Shown here: positions 59,606-59,752 of the stretch, in pieces
Layout: every line of letters begins with the position of its first letter
How positions within the stretch are numbered: the first letter of the stretch is position 1
Origin: Candidatus Peregrinibacteria bacterium CG11_big_fil_rev_8_21_14_0_20_49_14
GTDB lineage: Bacteria > Patescibacteriota > Gracilibacteria > Peribacterales > Peribacteraceae
Length of the DNA: 64,000 nt
Direction: 5' to 3'
Assembly (NCBI GenBank): GCA_002787035.1
Contig: PCVP01000034.1
Location: 15,902-79,901 of the forward strand
The notes under the pieces: model-generated
Told to the model about the DNA's origin: nothing
The model's database searches: none
What the model saw: the letters and a program-made list of their open reading frames with translations, nothing else
Translations under genes and position numbers: made by a program

Positions 59606-59752
59606 ATGGATAACGGTGACAAATGCGCCTGCGGCGCGGCGATGAAAGACGGCACTTGCTCCGGCTGTGGAGCCAAAGGCCAGGTCTGCTCCTCCACGGG
59701 TGGAGCATGCAGCGGAATGTGCAGTGCCTGTGCTGCAGGCAAGAAAATGTGA
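59606..59752 (+). CDS. Unannotated 48-aa Cys/Gly/Ala-rich peptide, metallothionein-like
   Basis: Hand translation gives MDNGDKCACGAAMKDGTCSGCGAKGQVCSSTGGACSGMCSACAAGKKM, with 8 Cys. It is below the track's size cut-off. Its stop lies 4 nt before a strong terminator hairpin. No SD was seen. Confidence 0.45.
   Translation: MDNGDKCACGAAMKDGTCSGCGAKGQVCSSTGGACSGMCSACAAGKKM

Follow-up and report, generated by a model that had tools for sequence, protein, structure and literature searches.

The subject of this study is a small cysteine-rich gene in a 64,000-nucleotide stretch (hereafter, the window) of contig PCVP01000034.1 from Candidatus Peregrinibacteria bacterium CG11_big_fil_rev_8_21_14_0_20_49_14, whose genome comprises 1.44 Mb with 49% G+C. 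The initial annotation of this DNA had described an unannotated open reading frame (ORF) of 48 codons on the forward strand, located between ccdA and a TlpA-DUF3179 gene in a metal/thiol island. The ORF at 59606..59752 starts with the ATG at 59606 and ends with the TGA at 59750-59752, encoding a product of 48 amino acids, MDNGDKCACGAAMKDGTCSGCGAKGQVCSSTGGACSGMCSACAAGKKM. Its eight cysteines (16.7% of the residues; C7, C9, C18, C21, C28, C35, C39, and C42) are arranged in CxC, CxxC, CxxxC, and CxxC spacings, the residues Phe, Trp, Tyr, and His are all absent, and the peptide carries no signal sequence. The start, the stop, the eight cysteines, their spacings, and the lack of aromatic residues were all present as claimed, and the position in the island was confirmed, with relatives of the gene also lying beside metal genes. 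As judged from the comparative data below, the proposal of an unannotated coding gene was borne out by the conservation of the frame in close alleles and by a 13-member family, and 59606..59752 is almost certainly a real protein-coding gene under purifying selection. The genes and features of the locus were as follows:

56314-56949, forward strand: class-I S-adenosylmethionine (SAM) methyltransferase
56980-57657, forward strand: Crp/Fnr regulator
57691-58272, forward strand: Met-rich protein of 193 aa (MMMENDSMMSGEHMGMMM…), matching no Pfam or NCBIfam family
58306-58863, forward strand: thioredoxin-fold lipoprotein (Pfam PF00085)
58860-59561, forward strand: CcdA/DsbD_TM thiol-electron transporter (PF02683, PF13386)
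59562-59605, forward strand: pyrimidine-rich spacer/leader of 44 nt (TTCTTTCCCC...TTTTT-ATG), read from the sequence
59606-59752, forward strand: gene of the eight-cysteine mini-protein, its frame open in the alleles L091, L092, and L094, with 13 family members
59757-59785, forward strand: intrinsic terminator starting 4 nt after the stop, comprising a 9-bp G+C hairpin (59757-59777), CA, and six T residues (59780-59785)
59786-61192, forward strand: TlpA-like redoxin-DUF3179 fusion with a lipoprotein-like N-terminus (PF11376, 1.9e-86; PF08534, 4.3e-19)
61150-61572, forward strand: MerT-like membrane protein (PF02411, 2e-07, below the gathering score)
61610-63013, reverse strand: MerA mercuric reductase (TIGR02053, 509 bits, cut-off 454)

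The ORF by itself was weakly beyond chance, and it was the comparative data that established its status as a gene. The region has 60% G+C, and three frames are therefore open. The two overlapping rival ORFs listed in the initial annotation, one of 97 aa on the reverse strand (59584..59877) and one of 70 aa on the forward strand (59623..59835), do exist, and both acquired stops in close alleles. In a first-order Markov simulation with the same composition, an ATG-initiated ORF of at least 40 aa with at least eight cysteines was obtained in 4% of the trials. Coding potential was scored with a 3-periodic Markov model trained on long ORFs from the same genome, and the score of the cysteine-rich ORF was not above that of one antisense frame.

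A scan of metagenome contigs with the peptide retrieved an identical copy (L090) and two alleles with 94% amino-acid identity (L091 and L092), to which a genome search added the allele L094 from G518, a genome of a different genus than the window. The cysteine frame was open in L091, L092, and L094, and the 97-aa antisense ORF and the 70-aa ORF in the +2 frame gained stops, with L092 carrying stops in both of them and an intact cysteine frame. The antisense ORF was checked directly because it has third positions in common with the cysteine frame. The allele alignment contained ten nucleotide differences within the ORF, eight of which fell at codon position 3 (binomial p = 0.0034). At the codon level, there were six synonymous changes, including two cysteine codons (TGC/TGT), and three replacements (D15E, K24T, and M38K), so that all eight cysteines were preserved through TGC/TGT swaps. 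By the Nei-Gojobori method, synonymous differences numbered 5.5 (31.2 sites) and non-synonymous differences 3.5 (112.8 sites), and the ratio of non-synonymous to synonymous substitution rates (dN/dS) was 0.16 between the window and L092 (Fisher p = 0.007, synonymous versus non-synonymous), with few informative substitutions between the alleles, the block at approximately 59360-59840 being 88-97% similar and most flanks having a synonymous divergence (dS) of 0.6-2.2 in a mosaic. Only the cysteine frame was kept in the alleles, with an excess of synonymous changes.

A comparison of positions 58700-61600 of the window with L091, L092, and L094 revealed blocks of 88-97% identity (59360-59840 and 59900-60320) separated by stretches of 60-80%, and the synonymous divergence was 0.2 in the small gene versus 0.6-2.2 in its neighbours. 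This mosaic suggests that co-resident Peribacter-like lineages have recently recombined or exchanged segments of the island. DNA of the window occurs in groundwater and aquifer metagenomes, and both alleles were present in the same groundwater runs; none of the public runs listed for the locus was an RNA run. The contigs of four groundwater and aquifer runs contained solely alleles of the L091 and L092 types, plus one loose end. This contig from run X8 matched the stretch 5′ of the ORF with 13 differences over 121 nt, followed the ORF itself for 10 nt, diverged at 59615, and then continued as ACAAGTGCGGGTGCGGTTCCGACAAGTGCT, which reads MDN-DKCGCGSDKC… in frame. Apparently, it represents a third, more divergent allele or paralogue of the CxC type in the same aquifer.

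The single peptide retrieved only itself from a set of 5.8 billion clusters, and a first search of 60 relatives yielded only noise. Two phmmer matches among 1.84 billion proteins were rejected as repeat-driven artefacts, one involving a tandem repeat of CCHC knuckles and the other an RCC1 repeat. When 400 genomes of the class were searched in six frames, one diverged copy was found, in G115, and it formed the basis of a profile. Among 200 genomes of the taxonomic family to which the window belongs, 12 were matched by this profile at E < 1e-8, and one more match at 9e-4 was confirmed by inspection, resulting in a family of 13 genomes from 12 genera of one taxonomic family. The full profile matched none of 337 genomes from other families of the class and none of approximately 390 genomes from other families of the phylum. 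A weak match in G348 with one TGA inside was discarded, as no family motif was seen on inspection. The initial annotation had suggested looking for conserved small cysteine-rich ORFs at the same position in related islands. The 13 members found by the profile had low dN/dS values, and no comparable ORF was present in the 80 loci reached via the TlpA-DUF3179 neighbour. In the nearest Peribacteria, the DUF3179 gene was found in a different neighbourhood.

The members encode 39-48 aa (for example, MENTNCPACAAPMKEGGCAVCKAQGQVCTKCYKCNACATAGMKK). All copies share the start Met, and their stops are TAA, TAG, or TGA at equivalent places; therefore, TGA acts as a stop here. The mean pairwise nucleotide difference within the family was 0.29, 0.28, and 0.51 at codon positions 1, 2, and 3, respectively. 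Pairwise dN/dS values ranged from 0.03 to 0.23, with 13.5 synonymous and 2.5 non-synonymous differences between L101 and L102. The initial annotation had also named a structured non-coding RNA as a possibility that would speak against the gene. RNAalifold found no conserved structure inside the ORF across the family (total -9.5 kcal/mol, covariation -0.46), and Rfam returned only a chance match below the threshold. The RNA of the window itself folds with z = -3.4, which is best explained by the complementarity of Cys, Ala, and Gly codons (UGC/GCA and GCC/GGC). Gene callers mostly miss the family. Three family clusters were present among 5.8 billion predicted-protein clusters, and seven of the nine distinct family sequences that were looked up were absent from 15 billion predicted proteins, with none of the nine named. 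The second cluster, which joins the peptide with an unrelated GTPase, was set aside as an artefact.

The family has the cysteine pattern CPxC-x8-CxxC-x6-CxxCxxCxxC and the consensus M-E-N-T-x-C-P-x-C-x3-M-K-[DE]-G-x-C-x2-C-x3-G-Q-V-C-[TS]-x-C-x-K-C-x2-C-A, with four CxxC pairs within 32 residues and conserved Met13, Gly16, Gln26, and Val27. Canonical members are rich in Lys, Thr, and Asn; one Tyr was found in four members, and one or two His in three (L099, L104, and L105). The window copy belongs to a divergent branch (group A) together with L092, L094, and L097. In this branch, a five-column insertion, consisting of four residues and a shifted cysteine, changed the third CxxC into C-x6-C, so that the spacing there reads C-x6-C-x3-C-x2-C, and Gly, Ser, Ala, and Thr occupy the positions between the cysteines. 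The window and L094 also share a change of the first knuckle from CPGC to KCAC, the ancestral form being NCPAC. L105 has a CxxCxxC-x3-CxC tail and nine cysteines. Across the family, the cysteine count was held at eight (nine in one member) while the spacing drifted, and from this constant count and drifting geometry we infer that a cluster binder is favoured over a rigid structural finger.

For a canonical member, an AlphaFold2 model based on a 12-sequence alignment had a predicted local distance difference test score (pLDDT) of 84.4 and a predicted TM-score (pTM) of 0.56, with a β-hairpin (residues 12-17 and 24-28) and a short helix (35-40). A Foldseek search against the PDB returned no match at E ≤ 0.001 (E > 2), and its weak rows included FYVE, PHD, RING, Fpg, and ribosomal zinc modules. 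A VIA structural search was likewise weak (Z 2.0-2.7), listing A20 fingers, the ClpX zinc-binding domain, a GATA finger, and small ribosomal proteins. The weak structural neighbours of the canonical model were all zinc-binding modules. In Pfam, DZR (PF12773) was matched below the threshold by 2 of 12 members (E = 0.088) and no family was matched by the window copy, and searches of NCBIfam and of PDB sequences with the members gave nothing significant. With its four CxxC pairs and conserved Met, Gly, and Val, the family consensus is closer in appearance to a two-site zinc-finger mini-domain than to a classical, disordered metallothionein.

The terminator reported 4 nt past the ORF was present as described. 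Its hairpin at 59757-59777 has nine pairs, seven of which are G-C, with a loop of 3, and the tail CATTTTTT is followed immediately by the ATG at 59786. In the alleles, the stem was kept, the loop alone was altered (GC>TT), and one C>T change yielded a G-U pair. Of the 11 copies for which flanks were aligned, 10 had a hairpin with a T-run directly 3′ of the stop, their stems differing in sequence. No gap separates the T-run in the window from the start codon of the TlpA-DUF3179 gene (59778-59788, CATTTTTTATG), and L097 is laid out likewise. Therefore, the downstream gene needs either read-through or a promoter inside the small gene.

On the 5′ side, the leader starts with a -10-like TAGAAT at 59562-59567, preceded by the ccdA stop TGA (TGnTAGAAT). 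A C/T-rich leader (TTCTTCCCC) recurs in the family and was present in all copies aligned with flanks, and a TAGnnT hexamer recurs 29-38 nt 5′ of the ATG in family members. A scan for consensus sigma-70 promoters detected none at any copy, and the TAGAAT element can only be inferred to be a candidate promoter. In L099, L101, L102, and L103, a conserved intergenic segment (…CATTATATGCAAGGACAATTAAGTAA…GTCAATCAAGCGTCATAGTG…) was observed approximately 100 nt upstream of the small gene, even where the 5′ gene is a cation diffusion facilitator (CDF) exporter and not a multicopper oxidase. The segment may act as a promoter or operator for the cassette. The lack of a Shine-Dalgarno (SD) sequence ahead of the ATG at 59606 had been counted as a weakness of the ORF. 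However, an SD-like 4-mer at positions -20 to -5 was found before 11% of 542 well-defined starts of this genome, versus 16% in a control window, and the start contexts throughout the genome are G-poor and T/C-rich, resembling the TTCTTTCCCCAACTTTTT found 5′ of the ATG at 59606. T or C occupies position -1 in 72% of the genes of this genome. Since this genome hardly uses SD sequences, the missing one is no weakness.

The small gene was found in at least seven different contexts:

Window, L091/L092, L094, and L097 (at least three genera): Trx-CcdA-(small gene)-(TlpA-)DUF3179-MerT-like
L099, L101, and L102: directly behind a multicopper oxidase, with the N-terminus of a P-type ATPase downstream in L101
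L100: ahead of a fusion of a heavy-metal-associated (HMA) domain with DsbD_2
L103: behind a CDF cation exporter
L099 and L104: adjoining SAM methyltransferases
L095 and L096: between prfB and a tRNA
L098 and L105: uninformative (Gmad2/VTT in L098)

In the first of these contexts, the thioredoxin-fold lipoprotein followed by CcdA was located upstream in the same order in L091, L092, L094, and L097, and the small gene was positioned directly 5′ of the DUF3179 gene also in L092, L094, and L097. A role in metal handling is supported mainly by the recurrence of copper, zinc/cadmium, and mercury genes around the cassette. This argument is qualitative, because the neighbourhoods are not fully independent; for example, the intergenic segment upstream of the gene in L103 also occurs in the multicopper-oxidase group. 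The SAM methyltransferases near three members were rejected as a shared partner, because they are not orthologous, having 23-33% identity over a generic fold. At the window locus, the match of MerA to PRK13748 begins at model position 98; therefore, the N-terminal HMA domain (NmerA) is absent from this MerA, and no MerP is present at the locus. The closest relatives of the neighbouring gene belonged to metagenome-assembled genomes (MAGs) of Candidatus Peribacteria/Peregrinibacteria.

The Trx-CcdA-TlpA/DUF3179 block was also found with MerA-like reductases nearby in loci of Woesearchaeota, where it lacks the small gene. Hence, it was only in the Peribacter-like family that the small gene was added to the block. 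In L013, L014, and L017, from Woesearchaeota and other archaeal MAGs, the block common to bacteria of the candidate phyla radiation (CPR) and DPANN archaea had 34-40% identity, with MerA-like reductases near it in L014 and L017. It is a candidate for the inter-domain transfer of a thiol/metal module. Small proteins with the motif GDCCVFCSYG, which we take to be a mer-associated cysteine-rich family, were observed near DUF3179 in Nitrospirales and Nitrosomonas loci (L024, 5159-5341; L061, 1270-1515), a hint that DUF3179 travels with genes for thiophilic metals. The Met-rich 193-aa protein encoded at 57691-58272 evolves fast, with 49% amino-acid identity to its counterpart in L091 compared with 88% for CcdA, and is a possible extracytoplasmic Met-motif protein of the Cu(I)/Ag(I) type.

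Taken together, the peptide very likely binds metal through its cysteines. With somewhat more confidence than doubt, we consider the product to be most likely a cytoplasmic metallothionein-like metal sink or chaperone. In operational terms, the window copy has the features of a metallothionein, with 48 aa, 16.7% Cys, CxC/CxxC/CxxxC spacings, and no Phe, Trp, Tyr, or His. The metallothionein-like character proposed in the initial annotation stood in so far as the peptide is cysteine-rich, probably binds metal, and lies among metal genes, but its suggested link to SmtA/BmtA failed. According to the proposed mechanism, the 48-residue protein would bind thiophilic metal ions in the cytoplasm via its eight Cys thiolates. 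Canonical members would probably fold around either a pair of M(II)Cys4-type sites or a single small thiolate cluster, and the relaxed form in the window possibly a small bridged cluster. The compact cassette of pyrimidine-rich leader, ORF, and terminator may travel as a unit and settle in different metal-resistance loci. At the window locus, the peptide would most likely sequester or pass on soft metals that reach the cytoplasm, such as Hg(II), Cu(I), Cd(II), or Zn(II). We speculate that the MerT-like importer and the MerA without NmerA leave room for a soluble thiolate partner.

Several results weigh against this reading. The 3-periodic Markov coding score of the ORF alone was -4.8, corresponding to the 4.6th percentile of true gene segments. 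The family is patchy, being present in 13 of 200 genomes and not found in the three other genomes of the window's genus (completeness 80-97%). No metallothionein family model in Pfam or NCBIfam was matched, the members being searched at E ≤ 10. The AlphaFold2 model of the window copy was poor (pLDDT 48) and unusable for a fold search. The conserved Met13, Gly16, and Val27, together with some Tyr and His, suggest a fixed structural zinc-finger fold and not a high-capacity buffer, and eight cysteines accommodate only about two to four ions. Furthermore, three neighbourhoods are not metal-related (prfB/tRNA in L095 and L096, Gmad2/VTT in L098, and L105).

The low coding score, the three open frames, the fold of the window RNA, and the lack of any homologue of the ORF alone among 1.84 billion representative proteins would all fit a chance ORF in a G+C-rich spacer, a 3′ untranslated region, or a structured RNA. 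However, the cysteine frame alone is conserved, the third-position pattern and the low dN/dS extend across 12 genera, and the RNA structure is not conserved, so that this explanation has a negligible probability. The terminator invites another explanation, in which the ORF is a cis-acting leader peptide whose translation modulates termination and read-through into the TlpA-DUF3179 gene. The T-run abutting the downstream ATG, which makes that gene dependent on read-through or an internal promoter, agrees with it, and a ribosome positioned on the stop codon would mask the hairpin's 5′ arm. It is nevertheless highly improbable, because the same ORF and terminator precede unrelated genes, a tRNA, or genes on the opposite strand, purifying selection acts on the whole peptide and not on the Cys codons alone, and no conserved alternative (antiterminator) pairing was found, RNAalifold giving the terminator hairpin and weak local pairs. 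Even less probable is a ribosomally synthesized and post-translationally modified peptide (RiPP) precursor of the SCIFF, ranthipeptide, or sactipeptide type. Such precursors are of similar size and cysteine density, and SAM methyltransferases lie near three members, but these three are non-orthologous, no radical-SAM or other maturase and no exporter were seen among the neighbours scanned, and there was no NCBIfam match.

Among the functional alternatives for a real gene, it is rather unlikely, though worth serious consideration, that the product is a structural double zinc finger with two ZnCys4 sites that binds a protein, RNA, or DNA partner, for example as a small regulator or adaptor, with no part in metal buffering or trafficking. 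Its metal neighbours would then reflect co-regulation or hitch-hiking in mobile islands. The four CxxC pairs including CPxC, the conserved M13, G16, Q26, and V27, the confident and compact AlphaFold2 fold of the canonical member, the matches confined to zinc-finger modules (with DZR at E = 0.088 in two members), and the neighbourhoods unrelated to metals all argue in this direction. On the other hand, metal genes recur in at least four different neighbourhoods, and no family was matched at the threshold. The window lineage lost the CPxC knuckle geometry and gained Gly, Ser, and Thr while retaining exactly eight cysteines, and the C-terminal cysteine pattern of L105 also differs. A role in thiol redox chemistry, either as a cytoplasmic partner or substrate of the Trx/CcdA/TlpA electron pathway or as a small Fe-S protein, is suggested by the location of the group A gene between CcdA and the TlpA-like redoxin, behind a thioredoxin-fold lipoprotein, and by the CxxCxxCxxC run, which loosely recalls Fe-S motifs. 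We consider this improbable. The N-termini of the Trx and TlpA proteins at this locus are of the lipoprotein type, so both would be expected to work outside the membrane, whereas the peptide lacks a signal sequence; most other members do not adjoin redoxins; and no Fe-S family was matched in Pfam or NCBIfam. The ferredoxin pattern is CxxCxxCxxxCP, which the family motif does not fit.

If the product binds metals, CPR bacteria with genomes of 1.2-1.4 Mb would carry a metal-buffering protein of their own, and a thiolate component in the cytoplasm would be added to the composite Trx/CcdA/DUF3179/MerT/MerA island. The transition from zinc finger to metallothionein could be studied in the family as a natural series, running from rigid forms with four CxxC pairs to relaxed ones rich in Gly and Ser, and a scaffold of 44-48 residues would be available for metal-capture work. 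If it is a structural zinc finger only, it represents an ordinary new micro-protein family. In either case, the family exemplifies how small cysteine-rich genes are systematically missed.

Among known systems, NmerA and MerP may share a niche with the window peptide, in which Hg(II) would be taken from a transporter by a small cysteine-rich protein. The HMA domain uses GMTCxxC on a ferredoxin-like fold, and the two are entirely unlike in fold and motif. Single-domain zinc-finger micro-proteins and double zinc ribbons (DZR, PF12773; haloarchaeal CPxCG proteins) likewise have four CxxC/CPxC pairs in approximately 40-60 aa, and in the canonical model a β-hairpin is predicted to bear the knuckles, although the window copy has CxC and C-x6-C instead. 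However, the spacing in our family is far tighter, with four pairs in 32 residues, the CxxCxxCxxC run is not a ribbon motif, and the metal-island context is atypical of those proteins. The small fungal Cu(I) metallothioneins (Neurospora/Agaricus) are rich in Gly, Ser, Ala, and Cys, with no aromatic residues and seven to eight cysteines. The likeness of the window copy to them is compositional only, the fungal proteins being eukaryotic and approximately half as long, whereas the canonical family members are rich in Lys, Thr, and Asn and look folded.

MymT, the Cu(I) metallothionein of Mycobacterium tuberculosis, contains His. It resembles the window peptide in its size of approximately 50 aa, its CxC/CxxC motifs, its lineage restriction, and its frequent lack of annotation, and three family members lie right behind a multicopper oxidase. 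In contrast, no homology was detected in the libraries scanned, in which the presence of a MymT model is unconfirmed, and no CsoR/RicR-type regulator was seen among the neighbours scanned. MymT plays a role in copper detoxification (PMC7387436).

SmtA/BmtA and the window peptide are small cytoplasmic cysteine-rich proteins linked to metal-resistance genes, a parallel that is drawn alongside the zinc-finger-like AlphaFold2 model of the canonical member. The KCAC motif, which the initial annotation had likened to the SmtA/BmtA signature, was derived within this lineage from the ancestral NCPAC. The SmtA/BmtA model PF02069 matched neither the window peptide nor any of 12 members at E ≤ 10, and a six-frame search of the whole genome with it was blank, with the control, SmtA of Synechococcus elongatus, scoring above the cut-off. 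On this sequence evidence, the KCAC resemblance is a derived coincidence and not a sign of SmtA ancestry, and the family is not an SmtA/BmtA homologue. The window copy further differs by having eight cysteines in another pattern and no His, and by lacking an adjoining SmtB-type repressor; the metal cluster of SmtA is Cys9His2 and that of PflQ2 is Cys9His (PMC7387436).

The family is unnamed and lineage-restricted, has a distinct cysteine scaffold, and by sequence homology appears to belong to no known bacterial metallothionein family. A 2020 study of a Pseudomonas metallothionein (PMC7387436) states that SmtA and MymT were until then the only bacterial metallothioneins whose biological function had been studied. 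Tentatively, the present family might be a third, sequence-unrelated family of bacterial metallothioneins or metallochaperones confined to Peribacter-like CPR bacteria, in which a two-knuckle zinc-finger scaffold was relaxed in some lineages to a Gly/Ser-rich thiolate binder, and whose cassette is mobile among copper, zinc, and mercury loci and stands in for NmerA/MerP at a mer-type locus.

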